DNA from: a virus | Strand: one strand, 5' to 3' | Length of the DNA stretch: 64,000 nt | IMG/VR virus record: IMGVR_UViG_3300032820_000003 | Location: 1-64,000 of that record | Shown here: positions 13,012-53,204 of the stretch, piece after piece | How the letters are laid out: the number at the start of each line of letters is the position of its first letter | Numbering within the stretch: the first letter of the stretch is position 1 | Notes under the pieces: model-generated | The model's input: the letters and a program-made list of their open reading frames with translations, nothing else | Databases searched by the model: none | Told to the model about the DNA's origin: nothing | Translations under genes and position numbers: made by a program

Positions 13012-13326
13012 TCACATTAGCTTTCTGATCCTCTCATGGTAAGCTTGCATCGTAGCCTTAATGACTTCTGGCTCGTCTAGCTTTGCGGTAGTGGAGAGAT
13101 AGCGGTCAAGCTGTTCTCTGATCTTATCCCGCTCCAGCCTGAGAGCCTGATAGTCTACCCTAGCAGTCACCTTGGCTACGCTCTCGGTGAGGTCGGCAGA
13201 CACTCTAATGACCGTATCAAAGAACTCGTCAAGGTCGATTAAACCTTCATCAAATTGTTCGCTAGCCATTGCTAGCCGTTTGATCCTAGCCATCGCCTCT
13301 ATTCTAGTAAATGATTGTTCTCCCAT
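13012..13326 (-). CDS. Hypothetical helical protein, divergent from the + strand cassette array
   Basis: 104 aa, AGGAGG RBS, followed by a hairpin. Confidence 0.7.
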   Translation of the reverse strand: MGEQSFTRIEAMARIKRLAMASEQFDEGLIDLDEFFDTVIRVSADLTESVAKVTARVDYQALRLERDKIREQLDRYLSTTAKLDEPEVIKATMQAYHERIRKLM

Positions 13327-45213: not shown

Positions 45214-47187
45214 TTAAATGTCCTCTGTAATATCTATAACAGATGGGGTTTCATCAATTGGTGTCTTAGGTCGTTCAGGTTTAGTATTACTGAAAGTAGC
45301 TTTCTCTACTGATAATACTCCATGCATTCCAAGATCGGCTACATAATCAATACCATTCTGTAAGAACCATAGTTTTGTACCATCAGGACTTATCTGTTTA
45401 ACGACAGGACTAGAAAAACCTTTGTTCATTAAGTCTCCCATCCATGTCTTATTCATTGCCCCACCAACTTCTTTATATCCGAACTGACGATTCTCTGCTT
45501 TCTTGGCTCGTGCCTCTGCATACTCATCAATATCACGTTCTTCATTGGGGGCTTTATCATGCCAGTCAGGAGTTCGTCCTGCGGTTCGTCCTTCAAACTT
45601 TCCATCAGCTTTAAGCATTGCCTGAATAGGGGTTCCTTCTTCGCCACTCGGAGGGGCAGGAAGTCCACCTTCACCTCCACCTTGAGTAGCTGCCATCTGT
45701 TGTTCCTGCATCTGCTGTTGGGCTTGAGCCATTTGATATTGTTGTTCTTGTTGAGCCAACTGCATAGCTTGTTGTTCAGCTTGCATCTGAGCAGCAGGAA
45801 CCATTTCACCGCTAATAATAAATTCGGCATCCTCCATTGGAACACCTTCTTCTTTTAAGGTAAACATAAATCCTAGTTGTGACATAGTTTGCATTACTTG
45901 CGCCCGTTGCTGAATAAAACTGATTTTCGTAGCTTCAGCTTTTTCTTCAGGATTTGGCATCTCCAATGTCCAATCAGTTACACCGAAAGCCTCTAATAAA
46001 GCAGGAACAACCTTTTGATGAATCAATCGTTGATCACTCTCTACTACTCGACTCATAACAACTAATTGTTGGGTTTGTGTTGATAGTCCGCCGAAAGCTT
46101 CAGGTGCGCCTTGCCATGCAGGAGTAACACCCCACATAGCAGCAATTCGTTCTCGTATTTCCTCTCTAACAGGTAAATAGTCCATCTCTTGTAATGTATG
46201 GAATAGCCTTACAAGGTCTACTCGACCCCTCTGACTTCTAGCAGATACGGCTACCATTGGAATAAAGTTAGGATCAATACGAGTTTGGGCTGCGATATGT
46301 TCTCGTTCTCTACGTAAGCTTTCAGGATCATCAGTTGTTACCATGATCATAGAAGCGGGCATTTTCCTCTCAAAGAAATAACGGTATAGATTTTTATCCA
46401 TACCAATTAAAGTTAACCCTTTTTCAAAGATCGTAAGAATCGGACTCCAACCATAAGTTTCTGAAGGAGCGAACTTAGATACGTGGATAACTTCGTGTTC
46501 CAACAAATACAGGTGTTGATTTCTATGATAGTATTTATACATGACTGGTTGCAGTTCTCTCTTACAACCGATTTCTTCACAAGTTCCCGGCCCTTCTGAG
46601 AGTTCTTCTCTGTGGATTGGGCATATAAAATGTGCGTTTTTAGGTAAGCCAGCTGTGTCAAGGTCAAACTCGACAAGGGCTGGATTAAGTCGTCTGATCT
46701 CTTTGACTTTGGATCGGAGGACATCCCCATCACTATAATACTCCTTTGCAATATATAGGAACGCATCATCAATTGAATTCAAATCAAAATGGAATTGTCT
46801 CATAACTTCTTCCAAACTCTGGGAGAAGATATTACAATTCTTCATAAATTTGTCAAGTAAATCTTTTTGTTCAGTATCAGGATCATCAGTTAAAGCTTTC
46901 CACTCTAAGCCCCTCCTAAAAACCTCATTTGTAATATGGTTTAAAGGAGATCGTATTTCCTGTACCGACATAACAATAGTTTGTAAGTCCATAACTAATT
47001 GTTGTCTGTAAGCCATTTGGTGGCGTACCCAAGTATTGACTACGTGATCAAGTCCTATACTTGGAGCCGTTCCAGTCTCTGCACCATTACTAGCTTTCAT
47101 TAACTGCATCATATCAATCTGTTGATTTAGATTAGTTAATTGTTGTGCTAGTTGTGGCACTTCTGGTAAATATTCTGATAATTTCAT
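45214..47187 (-). CDS. Portal protein
   Basis: 657 aa; EVIH, YGWSPI, YF....P, RE.IAA.WGV.P motifs; Q-rich tail. Confidence 0.85.
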   Translation of the reverse strand: MKLSEYLPEVPQLAQQLTNLNQQIDMMQLMKASNGAETGTAPSIGLDHVVNTWVRHQMAYRQQLVMDLQTIVMSVQEIRSPLNHITNEVFRRGLEWKALTDDPDTEQKDLLDKFMKNCNIFSQSLEEVMRQFHFDLNSIDDAFLYIAKEYYSDGDVLRSKVKEIRRLNPALVEFDLDTAGLPKNAHFICPIHREELSEGPGTCEEIGCKRELQPVMYKYYHRNQHLYLLEHEVIHVSKFAPSETYGWSPILTIFEKGLTLIGMDKNLYRYFFERKMPASMIMVTTDDPESLRREREHIAAQTRIDPNFIPMVAVSARSQRGRVDLVRLFHTLQEMDYLPVREEIRERIAAMWGVTPAWQGAPEAFGGLSTQTQQLVVMSRVVESDQRLIHQKVVPALLEAFGVTDWTLEMPNPEEKAEATKISFIQQRAQVMQTMSQLGFMFTLKEEGVPMEDAEFIISGEMVPAAQMQAEQQAMQLAQQEQQYQMAQAQQQMQEQQMAATQGGGEGGLPAPPSGEEGTPIQAMLKADGKFEGRTAGRTPDWHDKAPNEERDIDEYAEARAKKAENRQFGYKEVGGAMNKTWMGDLMNKGFSSPVVKQISPDGTKLWFLQNGIDYVADLGMHGVLSVEKATFSNTKPERPKTPIDETPSVIDITEDI

Positions 47188-47190
47188 TTA

Positions 47191-47631
47191 TTATTCCCTA
47201 CCTAAATTAGTCATATCTTGCATTGATACTAATTTTAGAATTGATTGCATTGCTTTTTCCTTCAATTCATAATCTTCTGAATGAGAGACATCTCTAAGTA
47301 CTTGAGATTTTCTTTCTTCCAAAAGTAAAATTTGTTCATGTAATTTTTGTATCTCCTGATCTTTTTCTAAGATCGTAGCTTCTAGTTCCGCTTCACCCGT
47401 TCCAAAATTAGCGTTTGCTAAAACTCCTGTTCGGGCTGCCTCTTTAACGATTGAGATAAATTCTCCTTCCGTTAATATCTTTACTGCTTCACTATCATCA
47501 TCGATTTCATCTTCAGGCTGTAAAGATTTTAAATCTTCGTGCCATGTATCTAATATACGCCATGTATTTGTAAGATCATCCTTAATTGCTACATATTGTA
47601 CTTCTCTATCTCTTAACATATTCCCTATCAT
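47191..47631 (-). CDS. Hypothetical protein with coiled coil
   Basis: 146 aa, AAGGAG RBS. Confidence 0.7.
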   Translation of the reverse strand: MIGNMLRDREVQYVAIKDDLTNTWRILDTWHEDLKSLQPEDEIDDDSEAVKILTEGEFISIVKEAARTGVLANANFGTGEAELEATILEKDQEIQKLHEQILLLEERKSQVLRDVSHSEDYELKEKAMQSILKLVSMQDMTNLGRE

Positions 47632-47650
47632 TTTACTTCTCTCCTTAAAT

Positions 47651-47881
47651 CTATTCTAAAGCTGCTGTTAATTTCTGCGGACTAAAGCCCACAATCATTG
47701 TCTCCTTATCAATTACAGTTACTGGTGTAACTCTAAATCCCATTCGTACTAAATCATCTGCATACTCAGGATTTGTTGAAACATTGTATTCTGTAAAATC
47801 GTACTTCCTATCTTTTAACCACATCTTGGTCATAGCACATGGGCCTCAACCATTTGATGTAAAGACGGTTATATTCTTCAT
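47651..47881 (-). CDS. nrdH: NrdH/glutaredoxin-like redoxin, probable selenoprotein (UGPC)
   Basis: AAGGAGG RBS + ATG 47881; MKNITVFTSNG-[TGA]-GPC-AMTKMWL...TPV...VGFSP; TGA at 47848-47846 occupies the first Cys position. Confidence 0.85.
47808..47835 (-). promoter_or_regulatory. Putative bacterial-type SECIS hairpin
   Basis: CUAU-GACCA-[AGAUG]-UGGUU-(AAAAG)-AUAG; loop starts 19 nt after the UGA, G at loop position 2. Confidence 0.6.
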
Positions 47882-47988
47882 TGCGCCTCCTTACGTTGTT
47901 TTCTCTCACAAACATAACATAGTCTGCGTTCTTTCTTCACATGTAGTTTAACACCACATTTACATTTTGTCCAGTTTCTTCTAGCCAT
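47878..47988 (-). CDS. 36-aa Zn-ribbon peptide
   Basis: MARRNWTKCKCGVKLHVKKERRLCYVCERKQRKEAQ; ATGA overlap with the redoxin start. Confidence 0.55.
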   Translation of the reverse strand: MARRNWTKCKCGVKLHVKKERRLCYVCERKQRKEAQ

Positions 47989-48088
47989 TTAACACCTCTG
48001 ATACAATAGTTCCTACTAAAACTAAGACGGCGATGAGGACTGTTACTTGTATTAACAGCCCCCATAAATCTGAGTTCTTCCAACCCAT
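47981..48088 (-). CDS. 35-aa single-TM peptide
   Basis: MGWKNSDLWGLLIQVTVLIAVLVLVGTIVSEVLNG. Confidence 0.45.
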   Translation of the reverse strand: MGWKNSDLWGLLIQVTVLIAVLVLVGTIVSEVLNG

Positions 48089-48096
48089 AATACCAT

Positions 48097-49536
48097 CTAC
48101 TCGTTAGTTAATGTTTCAGTAGGTGCGCCAATAGCAACTTCAACGTTGTCAGATACATTCCAATTGGCTGCTGTCACACTTTGATGTATCTTAAATTCCT
48201 TAGTAGCAAATCCGTCTGAGGCTCCAGCATTACCACCGCCCCCTATTTCATTAAGTTTAATAGTCATAGTACCAACTTTCATTCGGTCAAATATACAAGC
48301 ACCACCTTCCGTATACAAATTACTTAAAGTTAGCTTATCTATCTTACCATTTTTTGCACTTGTAGGGGCATCGATATGGATTCTATCGTACGATCCGCCT
48401 GAAGTCACCATTGCTTCAGCCTGATGATGACCTCCACCGACTGCCCTCATTCTTGAGGTTCCCGGTGTAGTATTTATTGATTGACCATCTGAAGCGTTTC
48501 CAAGTACGTTGATCGTATGCGCTGTTATATTATCAAAATACATCATCGTACATCTTGACTTTTCGATCAGTAATTCTCCTACCTCTAGGAAGGTAGGGAC
48601 AGCGTTCTCTCCAGCTACTACTGTACCCCCAATCAATACTGCTGTAGCCGAAGCCGCAGTACCGCCAGCAGACGTATGTGCTGATGAAGGTATAGCTGAA
48701 CCGTTATATACAGTTCCTACAGATACATTCTCTATTTTAATTTCTCTTACTGGTGTATCAGATAGAACAATTCGTAACGTATTATCTTCTTTATTCTCTT
48801 TCCTCCACGCCATTGTTTGTTCTAATGTAGGAGATGGATGTTCAGCGGGAGCAGCATATATGCCTGAGTCTCCATTTGTGAAGCTTCTATCGGCTAAGAC
48901 CGTCTCATTTACAACAACTCCAGTACCCGCAGTACCACCTACTGCTAATAAACCAATAGCCATCTGTGGGCTTAGACCCATCATTCTCAAGAACGAATAT
49001 GGAGACATCATAATTTTAAAGGTTGTCTTCCATTTCGCTGACTCAGAATTCAAATATTCAATCTTGGCTAATAGCCAATTTCTCCATACGGTAATCTTTC
49101 TATATAGAGCAATTGGTGATCTAATAACTGCCATTGGAGCAGCTTTAATTGTTTGCCACCACGCTCTGAAATTACTTACATGTAATAGTAATCCAAGTAC
49201 AATTAAACCTGACGATGCAGCAACTGTATTTATTAGATTTGCTTGTAAGTAAACAACAAAATCAAAAAGCCTATTTGCTATACTAAGGGATATATAAGGG
49301 GCGAGTGCAGGGATCGGATTAATATACGAACACAGCAAACCAAAACCGCCCATTAATACTAATAATGCCGTATTTATCGCCCCCAAAGTTGTAGCTATCC
49401 GTTTTACAGGAAGAACCAACGTTGGTAAGGTAATATGTGGCAAACTAAAACTAATCTTTGGTAACTTAATAGTCGGCATTTTAAATTCAGGTATTGCTAT
49501 AACTGATAAAATACTCTTTAAAAACCGTTGTATCAT
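48097..49536 (-). CDS. Membrane protein with beta-rich C-terminal domain
   Basis: 479 aa; ~3 hydrophobic segments then G/S/T-rich beta domain; late promoter at 49583-49592. Confidence 0.65.
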   Translation of the reverse strand: MIQRFLKSILSVIAIPEFKMPTIKLPKISFSLPHITLPTLVLPVKRIATTLGAINTALLVLMGGFGLLCSYINPIPALAPYISLSIANRLFDFVVYLQANLINTVAASSGLIVLGLLLHVSNFRAWWQTIKAAPMAVIRSPIALYRKITVWRNWLLAKIEYLNSESAKWKTTFKIMMSPYSFLRMMGLSPQMAIGLLAVGGTAGTGVVVNETVLADRSFTNGDSGIYAAPAEHPSPTLEQTMAWRKENKEDNTLRIVLSDTPVREIKIENVSVGTVYNGSAIPSSAHTSAGGTAASATAVLIGGTVVAGENAVPTFLEVGELLIEKSRCTMMYFDNITAHTINVLGNASDGQSINTTPGTSRMRAVGGGHHQAEAMVTSGGSYDRIHIDAPTSAKNGKIDKLTLSNLYTEGGACIFDRMKVGTMTIKLNEIGGGGNAGASDGFATKEFKIHQSVTAANWNVSDNVEVAIGAPTETLTNE

Positions 49537-49604: not shown

Positions 49605-51494
49605 TTATGCAATTTCACAAGCACTCCAATCACAAGATAAGCACTTATGACAACCGCTTTCATATATAATATTTGGATTTTCACAACAATCAAACGTCAT
49701 CTCTTCATTTTTAGTCCCTTTTACAAGGATTTCTTTTTCTCGACTTCCAGCCCTATAGACTGTAATTCCTTTACAATCAGTCTTCCATGCTAACATATAC
49801 GTCTCATATACATCCTCAATAGTTGCATCATTTGGCATATTAATAGTTTTAGAGATTCCTGAATCAACATGAGGTTGAAATGCTGCTTGCATTAAAACAT
49901 GTTCAGCAGGAGTTAGTTCTGGAGATGTAATATAGATTCGTTTTACATCATCAGGAACATCATCTCGATCTTGAAGACTACCCCCTTCAGCTAAAAAGTC
50001 CATTAAATCTTCTGAATAAAACTCTCGTTCTTTAGCTTCTTGCTCAAAGTATTTATTTACATACATTAATGTTTGAGCCTCTCCTGTCTCCTCTTTTAAA
50101 ATATTTTGTTTTCTCCATGCCAATGCAAACGTAGGTTCTATACCTGATGAACAGTCTGCTAACATAGATATAGTTCCTGTTGGAGCCACAGTCATACGAC
50201 AAGCATTTCGATACGCCTCAGTTACATGATTAAATGAACTCTGTTCCCATGCAGGAAAGGTTCCTCTTTTCGCTGCAAGATCGAGGGATGCTAAATCAGC
50301 TTCTCGTGTTATATATTGTATAAGTAATCCTGCAATCTTTCTTGCATCTTCACTATTATAAGGCACTCTTAATTGTATTAATAGATCAGCAAATCCCATT
50401 ATACCTACGCCAATCTTGCGAGTTGCTTTAGTCATCTGTTCAATTTCAGGAGTAGCATAATAATTTGCATCGATAACATTATCTAAGAAATTTACAGACA
50501 GTCTTGTAACTTTAGCTAATCGTTGCCAATCAATATGTTCCTCCCATGATAATGAACTATCCTCTGATACTAAACCTGATGCATCATAACTTGCAGCTTT
50601 CTGATAAAACTTGGCAACATTAATTGATCCTAAATTACATGATTCATTTCCAAGAAGTGGCTGTTCACCACATGGATTTGTTGCAATCATTTCACCATAT
50701 TGCCCTATAACTTTATTATCCCTATTAACTTGATCTAAGAAAATCATTCCGGGTTCACCGTTTCTCCATGCCCCCTCAACTATCTTATTAAAAACATATC
50801 TAGCAGAAACAGTATCGACTAAATGATTAGTATGTGGATCAATTAATCCATATGTCATATCATATTCAACCATTTTCATAAATCTAGAATCGACTCCGAC
50901 TGAAATATTGAAGTTATGAATGTCTCCTTCAGTAGCTTTACAAGCAATGAAATCTAAAATATCGGGATGATATACTGACATTACTGCCATATTAGCACCG
51001 TCACGTTTCCCAGCTTGCGTGACCATAGAAGATACTCGTGAAAGAGTCTTTAATACTTCAATCGGGCCACAGGCTTTACCATGAGTTGTTTTAATGCTAG
51101 TTCCTGCGGGACGTAAATGAGATAATGAAAAACCTGTCCCTCCTCCAAACTTCTGAACCATTGCCATATCATGAGCAGTTTTCATAATGTCCTGCATACT
51201 ATCCTCTAAAGGTAGTACAAAACATGCTGATAAAGTTCCTTGTTCAGTTCCAGCATTCATTAAAGTTGGAGAGTTTGGAACAAATTCTAATTTCTCCATT
51301 ATATCTATAAATTCCTGTTTAAGTAAATCCTTTTCAACAGGTAAAGTAAGGTAGTCATCTTCGACTTTCGCAATTGCTTCAGCCACCCGACTAAATAAAT
51401 CGTTTCCATCTTCGACAGTTTCCCCTTTATTATTTTTTAAATAGTAACGATTCCTCGCCACAGTTTCAGCATGTGGTGCTAACGTAGTTGTCAT
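49605..51494 (-). CDS. nrdJ: Class II (adenosylcobalamin-dependent) ribonucleotide reductase
   Basis: PNSPTLMNAG, LSACFV, TNPCGEQPL..ESCNLGS, APTGTIS, KGITVYR; no ATP cone; C-terminal Cys cluster; no NrdB in window. Confidence 0.92.
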   Translation of the reverse strand: MTTTLAPHAETVARNRYYLKNNKGETVEDGNDLFSRVAEAIAKVEDDYLTLPVEKDLLKQEFIDIMEKLEFVPNSPTLMNAGTEQGTLSACFVLPLEDSMQDIMKTAHDMAMVQKFGGGTGFSLSHLRPAGTSIKTTHGKACGPIEVLKTLSRVSSMVTQAGKRDGANMAVMSVYHPDILDFIACKATEGDIHNFNISVGVDSRFMKMVEYDMTYGLIDPHTNHLVDTVSARYVFNKIVEGAWRNGEPGMIFLDQVNRDNKVIGQYGEMIATNPCGEQPLLGNESCNLGSINVAKFYQKAASYDASGLVSEDSSLSWEEHIDWQRLAKVTRLSVNFLDNVIDANYYATPEIEQMTKATRKIGVGIMGFADLLIQLRVPYNSEDARKIAGLLIQYITREADLASLDLAAKRGTFPAWEQSSFNHVTEAYRNACRMTVAPTGTISMLADCSSGIEPTFALAWRKQNILKEETGEAQTLMYVNKYFEQEAKEREFYSEDLMDFLAEGGSLQDRDDVPDDVKRIYITSPELTPAEHVLMQAAFQPHVDSGISKTINMPNDATIEDVYETYMLAWKTDCKGITVYRAGSREKEILVKGTKNEEMTFDCCENPNIIYESGCHKCLSCDWSACEIA

Positions 51495-51515: not shown

Positions 51516-53204
51516 TTATCCTCGATATCCACAGTAGAGACATAAATTGTTTGCTTTAACCCAAAACGATTCGACACAGATGCTTTCTTGACAGTCAGGA
51601 TTTGGAGCAGTCGCCCCAAGTTGATTCGTATCATTCCATGATAACTGAGTGTCTCCTGATTCTAAATCTTCTATTCCATCTTTTTTGCCACGTAATGTAG
51701 CTTCTATTTGTACGCTTGCCTTTGGTGCTGATTGTTCTCCGGGCGATACCGCCTCTAACCAATCTGTAGCACTCCCTACTGTTGTATAAACATCTTGCGA
51801 TAATTCATGACATGCTTGTAATGCCATTGCAACTGAGAAGAATGCGTCTCCGTGTCCCATAGGTGTTTCAGGTGCTTTCAATTCGTTACTTACAGATAAA
51901 ATCTGTTGAGTTTGTCGTTCATCTTGAAGCAGTTTTAAATTCCCAGAATGTACGAACTGCTCAAATATATGAGCCATCGTATTCTTAGATTTTAATGTAA
52001 ACGACATAGATCGCCATTTATGGTCTAATCCTCTATCCTCTAATTCTCCACGAGTATTATCTACATAACCCCGTGTAATATTAAAGTTTTCTGCCACTTC
52101 GTTCAGATACTCTACTTGATCTGAATAACTCCAACCATCTAACCATGATTGGTGTATCTGCTCCACTTTATCTCCAATCTTTCTGAAAATAACGAGATGT
52201 GATGGGTGTCTCTTTTTCCCCACATCAAACCCAGCGAATATTTGTTCATCAACCGATTCTGTATACGGTTTAGTTGTAGGTAGATTCCTCAACTCTGGGT
52301 CTTCTAAATTTTCTATATCTTCCTTATCAAAATATGATTCAGTCGAAAAATGTGGTACTAACAAAAACTCTGAAGCAAAAGACTTAGGTCTTGCTTTTTG
52401 TTGCTGTAGTAACCATTCTTCTGAGTATAACTCAGGCATTAAAACTCGCCTATTTGGGGCAGGGTCTAATGCTGGTAAGACTCTAGATTTAAATCTATCA
52501 TCTTTTTGTAACTTTGTCAAGAGGTCACCCGGCATCATGGGGGTTCCTAATACAATAGTAGGTACACCTTTTAAGGGAATGAATAAACTTTCCGTCATAA
52601 AATGGTCTTCTACTTTTGTAATCTGCCCCGTATTTAAAGGATTTTCAGGGTCACGTAAAACGTCATCTGCAATTAATGCCCCATTAACGTGCATACCTCT
52701 TTTAAAAGAAAACAATCCTCCATGCATAATTTCAATAGGTTTATTCTGTAAATAATACCTAAATGAATAATCAGCTTTTGGAGTCCTATTTACCATCATC
52801 TCTGAAAGAATAGGATTCCTAGAGATTTCTTTATTGATTTCAGATATATGATACTTAGCCATACCATCACTATAAGATAAATATAAGACTGACATGTCTC
52901 GTGTCGATTGTAATAATCTCCAAACACTAAAGGCATGTCCTAATATGGTTGACTTAAAATGAAACCGTGGTAACACAGCTACATAATTTAAGCCTTCCTG
53001 TAAACATTCTTCTATATCTTCTGCTACTTGTCCAACGTGCCATGCTTGAAAATATTCTGGGTGGTCAAATCCTTGCGACCATATGTCCCTAAGAAACTCC
53101 CAAAAGCTTCCAATACGAGTTGTTGTATGTGTAGTTAAGCCGTCAGATAATAATTCAAAAGCTTTACTAAATGTTGTTACATCGTTTGATTTAACCATCT
53201 CCAT
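51516..53204 (-). CDS. terL: Terminase large subunit
   Basis: PRFHFKS Walker A variant, IADD Walker B, GTP, GFDVG nuclease start, HGDAF. Confidence 0.88.
   Translation of the reverse strand: MEMVKSNDVTTFSKAFELLSDGLTTHTTTRIGSFWEFLRDIWSQGFDHPEYFQAWHVGQVAEDIEECLQEGLNYVAVLPRFHFKSTILGHAFSVWRLLQSTRDMSVLYLSYSDGMAKYHISEINKEISRNPILSEMMVNRTPKADYSFRYYLQNKPIEIMHGGLFSFKRGMHVNGALIADDVLRDPENPLNTGQITKVEDHFMTESLFIPLKGVPTIVLGTPMMPGDLLTKLQKDDRFKSRVLPALDPAPNRRVLMPELYSEEWLLQQQKARPKSFASEFLLVPHFSTESYFDKEDIENLEDPELRNLPTTKPYTESVDEQIFAGFDVGKKRHPSHLVIFRKIGDKVEQIHQSWLDGWSYSDQVEYLNEVAENFNITRGYVDNTRGELEDRGLDHKWRSMSFTLKSKNTMAHIFEQFVHSGNLKLLQDERQTQQILSVSNELKAPETPMGHGDAFFSVAMALQACHELSQDVYTTVGSATDWLEAVSPGEQSAPKASVQIEATLRGKKDGIEDLESGDTQLSWNDTNQLGATAPNPDCQESICVESFWVKANNLCLYCGYRG

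Follow-up and report, generated by a model that had tools for sequence, protein, structure and literature searches.

A phage glutaredoxin-like gene with a conserved UGA codon at its redox-active position: a probable selenoprotein gene beside a B12-dependent ribonucleotide reductase

The redoxin gene and its neighbours

The window analysed here is a stretch of 64,000 nt, positions 1-64,000 of the virus record IMGVR_UViG_3300032820_000003. The source record is complete, with a length of 85,063 bp and direct terminal repeats. The following features of the window are relevant, in order of descending coordinates.

51516..53204, (-) strand: large terminase (phrog_38, E 1.4e-24)
49605..51494, (-) strand: class II adenosylcobalamin-dependent ribonucleotide reductase (RNR) NrdJ (TIGR02504, 649.5 bits, cut-off 399.95; Pfam RNR barrel domain)
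48097..49536, (-) strand: 479-aa protein between NrdJ and the redoxin; no Pfam or PHROG match; syntenic
47878..47988, (-) strand: 36-codon CxC...CxxC ORF, the TGA stop of which overlaps the ATG of the redoxin gene as ATGA; kept in relatives
47886..47892, (-) strand: Shine-Dalgarno sequence AAGGAGG, 4 nt upstream of the ATG at 47881-47879
47651..47881, (-) strand: predicted selenocysteine (Sec)-containing glutaredoxin/NrdH-like gene, 76 codons plus a TAG stop (47653-47651); active site U12-G-P-C15
47846..47848, (-) strand: in-frame UGA, the proposed Sec codon 12 and the sole in-frame TGA of the gene
47816..47832, (-) strand: SECIS-like hairpin, stem 47832-47827 with 47821-47816, loop AGAUG at 47826-47822
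45214..47187, (-) strand: portal protein (phrog_18178, E 1.2e-40)

An initial annotation of this DNA had extended a 60-aa ORF upstream through one TGA to the ATG at 47881, giving a 76-aa product with the active site U-G-P-C, preceded by AAGGAGG and overlapping the upstream ORF by ATGA. Our analysis confirmed each of these elements, and the score of the neighbouring RNR leaves its earlier identification as the B12-dependent NrdJ intact. The order TerL, NrdJ, 479-aa protein, small Zn-ribbon-like ORF, Sec-redoxin, 146-aa protein and portal is kept in relatives.

The 479-aa protein has hydrophobic N-terminal segments and is 74-92% identical in relatives. The product of the 36-codon ORF is basic and Zn-ribbon-like, has no family match and is found in most relatives; at one locus (L006) another Cys-rich, metallothionein-like ORF takes its place. 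At the C-terminus of NrdJ (49605-49700) a Cys-rich tail, CC...CxxCxxC...C, was observed. It resembles the zinc-finger redox tail present in many class II RNRs, which accepts electrons from proteins of the thioredoxin type.

For profile searches of the redoxin, Cys was substituted for U12. The protein proved to be a member of the Pfam Glutaredoxin family (PF00462; 49.5 bits, cut-off 22.9, E 4.8e-13) and matched PHROG 22 'thioredoxin domain' (E 7e-17). An AlphaFold model with a mean pLDDT of 87.5 showed a b1-a1-b2-a2-b3-b4-a3 glutaredoxin fold, in which U12 immediately precedes helix 1 (residues 13-24), at its N-terminus; the top structural matches were NrdH proteins and cGrx1 (TM 0.8-0.9). Profile and model thus agree with the glutaredoxin/NrdH fold that had been assigned initially. 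The name NrdH itself was too specific. The redoxin is NrdH-like, the NrdH subfamily model TIGR02194 being its top NCBIfam model, but its 66.5 bits are under the cut-off of 85.75, and in an alignment to E. coli NrdH the CVQC active site and the WSGFRP sequence, which we take as the defining NrdH motifs, were absent, with UGPC and VGFSP found instead. The predicted protein is filed here as a Sec-containing glutaredoxin-like redoxin, 'NrdH-like' but failing the tests for NrdH membership on both score and motifs. The Uxx-star glutaredoxin-like selenoprotein family (NF041212) was rejected as well: the redoxin scored 46.3 bits against a cut-off of 66, and this family needs Sec three residues from the C-terminus, whereas the redoxin gene ends with TAG and has no C-terminal UGA.

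Sec-glutaredoxins (PF00462, UxxC) are an accepted bacterial selenoprotein family (PMC13188914), and cGrx1 of Clostridium (Alkaliphilus) oremlandii (PDB 7c10) is a native selenoprotein glutaredoxin (PMC7642778). This protein was the best PDB sequence match of the redoxin (E 3.6e-10, 34% identical; TM 0.90 to the model), and both have a glutaredoxin fold of ~75-85 residues with Sec (predicted for the redoxin) first in U-x-x-C. However, cGrx1 is cellular, has U-P-x-C and is proposed to reduce the selenoprotein MsrA, whereas the redoxin is encoded by a phage, in linkage with NrdJ, and its U-G-P-C is the thioredoxin motif. The NrdH-redoxins of E. coli (1h75), M. tuberculosis (4hs1) and C. glutamicum (4fiw) resemble it in their C-x-x-C-x-x-T-K and G-F-R-x-x-P-V signatures, but NrdH serves the class Ib NrdEF and the neighbour of the redoxin is the class II NrdJ. 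NrdH is an RNR reductant with a thioredoxin-like activity profile; we know of no NrdH that contains Sec. Similar in setting are the redoxins that accompany phage RNRs (T4 NrdC; PHROG 22), also small thioredoxin (Trx)-fold proteins encoded near a phage RNR. Cys homologues of the redoxin are present in 449 isolated phages, all <60% identical to it, and the Sec form is specific to the marine clade. A DNA search of isolated phages gave no match.

The in-frame TGA and translation across it

In this phage, TGA terminates ORFs with lengths from 104 to 652 aa, among them those at 13012, 23127 and 34849, which the initial annotation had cited against code reassignment. Seven of the 8 long TGA-terminated ORFs are real genes, and none of the large phage genes contains an in-frame TGA. 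The window and four relatives end the 36-codon upstream ORF with TGA, seven further relatives with TAA; this alternation indicates that TGA is a stop in the phage and, with the ORF ends, upholds the exclusion of a changed code. A sense meaning of TGA in phage or host (code 4 or 25), for which the W at this position in some database gene calls might be quoted, is effectively refuted by the same observations, and in functional terms neither W nor G would make sense as the first residue of CxxC. A scan of the phage for a second Sec gene, as a TGA between two long open parts, gave no convincing candidate.

Searching IMG/VR and marine metagenomes yielded 39 loci, at which the redoxin gene occurs in 20 distinct DNA versions. 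TGA was present at codon 12 in all 20, at protein identities of 50-90%. In a database of 5.8 billion proteins, 78 clusters were obtained at ≥68% identity, of which 78 were consistent with TGA and 0 with Cys; their gene calls were either 59-61 aa long and started at Met16, or full-length with W12 (code 4). Among the ~100 variants formed by the DNA versions and protein clusters, TGY was never found at codon 12. More distant homologues carry CGPC or CPFC where the phage has UGPC. A UGA aligned with the redox Cys of homologues is a criterion for a bacterial selenoprotein gene, and by alignment the redoxin gene meets it.

Contigs assembled independently from four marine plankton runs were identical to the window over 47400-48100, although the runs may include the source sample of the window. 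The initial annotation had named an assembly error at the TGA and a lone nonsense allele as findings that would overturn it; neither was encountered, since the relatives and the four-run assemblies agree on the TGA and every relative carries it. Beyond the presence of the stop codon itself, nothing speaks for a pseudogene or a sequencing artefact, and both are refuted by the comparative data, that is by the identical assemblies, by the TGA in 20 diverged versions under purifying selection and by the kept synteny. The exact 60-aa (Met16) call was seen on 102 contigs and the call of one relative on 153, so the phage lineage is widespread. The phage was listed in 20 sequencing runs of marine samples, none of them an RNA run.

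Substitutions were compared in 18 phage versions of the gene. Upstream of the TGA (codons 4-11) pS was 0.43 and pN 0.12, and downstream of it (codons 13-56) these values were 0.57 and 0.18, so that pN/pS was ~0.3 on both sides. This substitution pattern shows that the upstream codons share the purifying selection acting downstream and, as far as such a pattern can, that translation crosses the TGA. Nearly all relatives have a GGAG-type Shine-Dalgarno sequence ahead of the start codon, which is ATG, GTG or TTG. Several relatives encode Ala at residue 16 and hence have no Met16 start codon.

The conserved upstream codons are hard to reconcile with the possibility that the TGA is a real stop, the upstream part being a regulatory leader peptide, and the true product being either the 60-aa ORF from Met16 (47833) or an 11-residue leader. 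Gene callers do predict exactly that 60-aa ORF, and an ATG follows closely after the TGA, but strand 1 and the entire CxxC site, both needed by the fold, would be missing from that protein, and the Ala at residue 16 removes its start in several relatives. Moreover, on both sides of the stop (xITVFTSxG upstream, G-P-C downstream) the protein sequence is conserved while synonymous changes occur, and the Shine-Dalgarno sequence precedes the ATG at 47881 and not Met16. We regard a product of this kind as very unlikely. On the comparative evidence, the redoxin gene is a real, conserved phage gene with a recoded UGA, and all public gene calls for it, judged by the same alignments, are wrong, being either shortened to Met16 or given Trp at the UGA. 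The shortened or mistranslated database entries expose a systematic annotation error.

The stem-loop downstream of the UGA

The hairpin of the window, UGACCA / AGAUG / UGGUUA, has 6 bp with one G-U pair. It begins 13 nt past the UGA, and its loop begins 19 nt past the UGA with a G at loop position 2. Core stem, loop distance and loop G had been described correctly in the initial annotation; the lower stem CUAU/AUAG that it added is not kept in relatives and was dropped. Stability was evaluated against synonymous recodings drawn under the codon usage of the phage itself. Taken alone, the window hairpin is weak (-4.8 kcal/mol), with 10% of the recodings folding equally well (p 0.10), but in relatives the native hairpin was more stable than the recoded ones (p 0.0005-0.03). 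The significance of the window hairpin therefore rests on the comparison with its relatives, not on its own stability.

In the comparison of 18 phage sequences, with columns numbered so that the UGA is 1-3, a consensus helix of 6 bp was formed by columns 17-22 with 28-33, enclosing a 5-nt loop that reads AGAUG, AGUCU, AGGUG or AGGCU. Some phage relatives have the helix lengthened to 8-9 bp. Pairing was found in 85.9% of the cells of the helix, compared to at most 48% when the 3' partner was slid by 1-3 columns. Pair 17:33, which is UA in nine sequences, CG in six and CA in three, is the one covarying pair, and its covariation links an Ala/Met change to a synonymous UUA/UUG choice. The hairpin was thus kept in relatives, a further point on which the initial annotation could have failed. 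The fixed stem codons are rare in the phage (ACC makes up 8% of the Thr codons and AAG 27% of the Lys codons). The conserved residues T-K-x-W-L also constrain much of the stem.

An Rfam scan of 47600-47950 (E up to 10) gave only a chance snoRNA match and no SECIS family; given the poor coverage of short bacterial SECIS hairpins, this null result is uninformative. Compared to the SECIS of E. coli fdhF, the phage hairpin is likewise a stem-loop within the ORF, just 3' of the UGA, with a G near the 5' side of the loop; the fdhF loop begins 18 nt after the UGA, against 19 in the phage. However, the phage stem is shorter (5-9 bp), there is no evident bulged U and the loop letters are different.

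Over the codons that form the phage stem, the cellular relatives L017, L040, L059, L060 and L064 have another stem, GUGAAAG/CUUUCAC, of 7-8 bp. Structure is therefore retained in the cellular UGPC genes, with other letters and other residues. A single structure for the phage and cellular clades was impossible, the stems being offset by 3 nt, and the clades were analysed apart. The stem in Dehalococcoidia is unlike that of the phage in sequence, and recognition of both by the same SelB has not been shown. For a bacterial SECIS one expects a conserved stem-loop just 3' of the UGA at SECIS spacing; this criterion is met by the predicted structure, in the absence of SelB-binding data.

Selenocysteine insertion, host and function

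In the phage, SelB, SelD and tRNA-Sec were not found (SelA was not part of the search), and its only tRNA is a tRNA-Tyr. Without Sec genes of its own the phage must rely on those of its host. The GTDB species genomes contained one match to the redoxin, in a Dehalococcoidia MAG (G001), whose UGPC gene, at 49% identity, has ThiI-like, LexA-like and DtxR-like genes in its chromosomal surroundings. All parts of the Sec machinery were found in this MAG over curated cut-offs (SelB 357 bits, SelA 545, SelD 382 and tRNA-Sec 70). The closest cellular UGPC lineage is therefore Sec-competent, as the initial annotation required of the host, although the phage host itself has not been identified. The UGPC homologue L017 lies on a bacterial contig beside rpoC. 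The UGPC genes of marine Dehalococcoidia (L040/L058, L059, L017) share the U-G-P-C site and ~50% identity with the phage gene and likewise have a hairpin over the codons that follow the UGA, but they are chromosomal and not linked to NrdJ, and their 7-bp stem is encoded by V-K-x-F/Y-L-S instead of T-K-x-W-L.

A homologue was detected in 65 of 301 sampled Dehalococcoidia genomes, roughly half of these having one TGA in the match. When the best 12 of the 65 loci were inspected, the first Cys position held TGA in 5 (UGPC, UAPC, UPHC, UPYC) and Cys in 7 (CGYC, CAPC, CPPC). Many Dehalococcoidia frames of ~170-240 aa (L062-L068) were seen to start with the Grx domain of the redoxin; UPHC or UPYC is found in some of them and CGYC in others, an alternation of Sec and Cys inside a single class. 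In a maximum-likelihood tree of 35 Grx sequences the phage sequences formed a cluster, and the nearest cellular rows were Dehalococcoidia Sec forms, with weak support. These sequences are too short to resolve and long branches attract, and no direction of transfer is claimed.

Taken together, the tests that could have refuted the initial reading, on assembly, lone allele, hairpin and Sec machinery, came out in its favour, and the reading is upheld. We put the probability that the redoxin gene encodes a selenoprotein made with host machinery at about 0.8; direct selenium or expression evidence is lacking and the inserted residue is inferred. In the proposed mechanism, translation would start at the ATG at 47881, and the hairpin within the 30 nt after the UGA (47848-47846) would recruit host SelB with Sec-tRNA(Sec), in the manner of a bacterial in-ORF SECIS. 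Sec would then be inserted at the UGA instead of termination, giving U-G-P-C with selenocysteine as the attacking residue, and for this step the phage would rely on a Sec-competent bacterial host.

What has been shown is translation across the TGA and not the residue inserted there. With a small hairpin and a host that is not identified, read-through without Sec remains conceivable, by a near-cognate tRNA-Trp or tRNA-Cys or a suppressor, the hairpin merely slowing termination. Yet the TGA falls on the very codon of the redox Cys, a position at which members of this family are known to carry Sec (PMC13188914; PMC7642778), and with Trp in that place the CxxC site could no longer work. A need for Cys could be satisfied by a single mutation to TGY, which is nevertheless absent in the ~100 variants; in addition, the cellular homologues with the same TGA sit in genomes with full Sec machinery. 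We consider read-through of this type unlikely, and insertion of Sec remains the preferred reading.

No published bacteriophage selenoprotein was found in the literature searched. A 2021 review of viral recoding lists only the poxvirus glutathione peroxidase (GPx) genes and no phage case (PMC8310308), phages and viruses go unmentioned in a 2026 review of the prokaryotic selenoproteome (PMC13188914), and a marine trace-element survey reported few or no viral sequences in selenoprotein families. For Bacillus phages, one paper describes a tRNA-SeC gene without reporting a selenoprotein. Viral selenoproteins have so far been documented only in a few poxviruses. The GPx selenoproteins of molluscum contagiosum and fowlpox resemble the proposed case in being virus-encoded and dependent on host Sec machinery only, but they belong to eukaryotic viruses and have a eukaryotic SECIS and the GPx fold (PMC8310308). 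A Sec gene that is fixed across a widespread lineage of marine phages would show that phages exploit the UGA-recoding apparatus of their hosts, would add selenium to the trace elements able to limit viral replication in the ocean and, as a simple sequence marker, would restrict the candidate hosts to bacteria that use Sec.

As to function, RNRs need a reductant of the Trx-fold type. Because of this, and because phage Trx-fold proteins are commonly encoded beside RNR genes, the redoxin probably re-reduces NrdJ. This is its most likely role, inferred only from conserved linkage and analogy. The 76-residue product would then be a thiol-disulfide oxidoreductase that re-reduces the B12-dependent NrdJ during dNTP synthesis, and may itself be reduced by host thioredoxin reductase.

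Two phage genes bear on the host. One codes for a sigma-70 region 2 protein, the family of which matched bacterial control genomes only; the other is the tRNA-Tyr (88 nt), whose long variable arm is of the bacterial type. They indicate a bacterial host. An archaeal host, suggested by the matches of the portal protein to haloarchaeal viruses, was rejected on the same grounds. Among 50,697 isolated phage records, the only relatives of the portal were those of the haloarchaeal HVTV-1, HCTV-1 and HCTV-5, at 27% identity. Eight small-genome Dehalococcoidia, including G001, have an NrdJ with 58-61% identity to that of the phage, and for the rest of the Dehalococcoidia the identity is at most 50%; this comparison was confined to the class and did not include other phyla. 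SelB was over cut-off in 3 of 5 tested genomes with a phage-like NrdJ. Within the limits of a class-internal sequence comparison, this points to small-genome Dehalococcoidia as host or gene donor. Marine Dehalococcoidia of the G001 lineage are the best host candidate by inference, their Sec competence being deduced from the nearest cellular homologues.

A wider hypothesis can only be offered tentatively, and we rate it at somewhat less than even odds: phages of this entire, abundant marine lineage would make a selenoprotein of their own, the Sec-redoxin would be a dedicated NrdJ reductant, phage DNA synthesis, probably in SAR202-type Dehalococcoidia, would need host Sec machinery, selenium and cobalamin, and UGA and SECIS would act as a host-range gate. 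If true, active enzyme would be obtained from Sec-competent hosts only.

Two details of the Dehalococcoidia genomes are also recorded here. On G193:C6, G160:C19 and G143:C1, which carry the NrdJ closest to that of the phage, selB and nrdJ lie ~13-21 kb apart on the same contig. The SelD gene of G001 (L070, G001:C12:31289-32212) itself has an in-frame TGA, and a 7-bp hairpin with the loop GGAU starts ~13 nt downstream of it.
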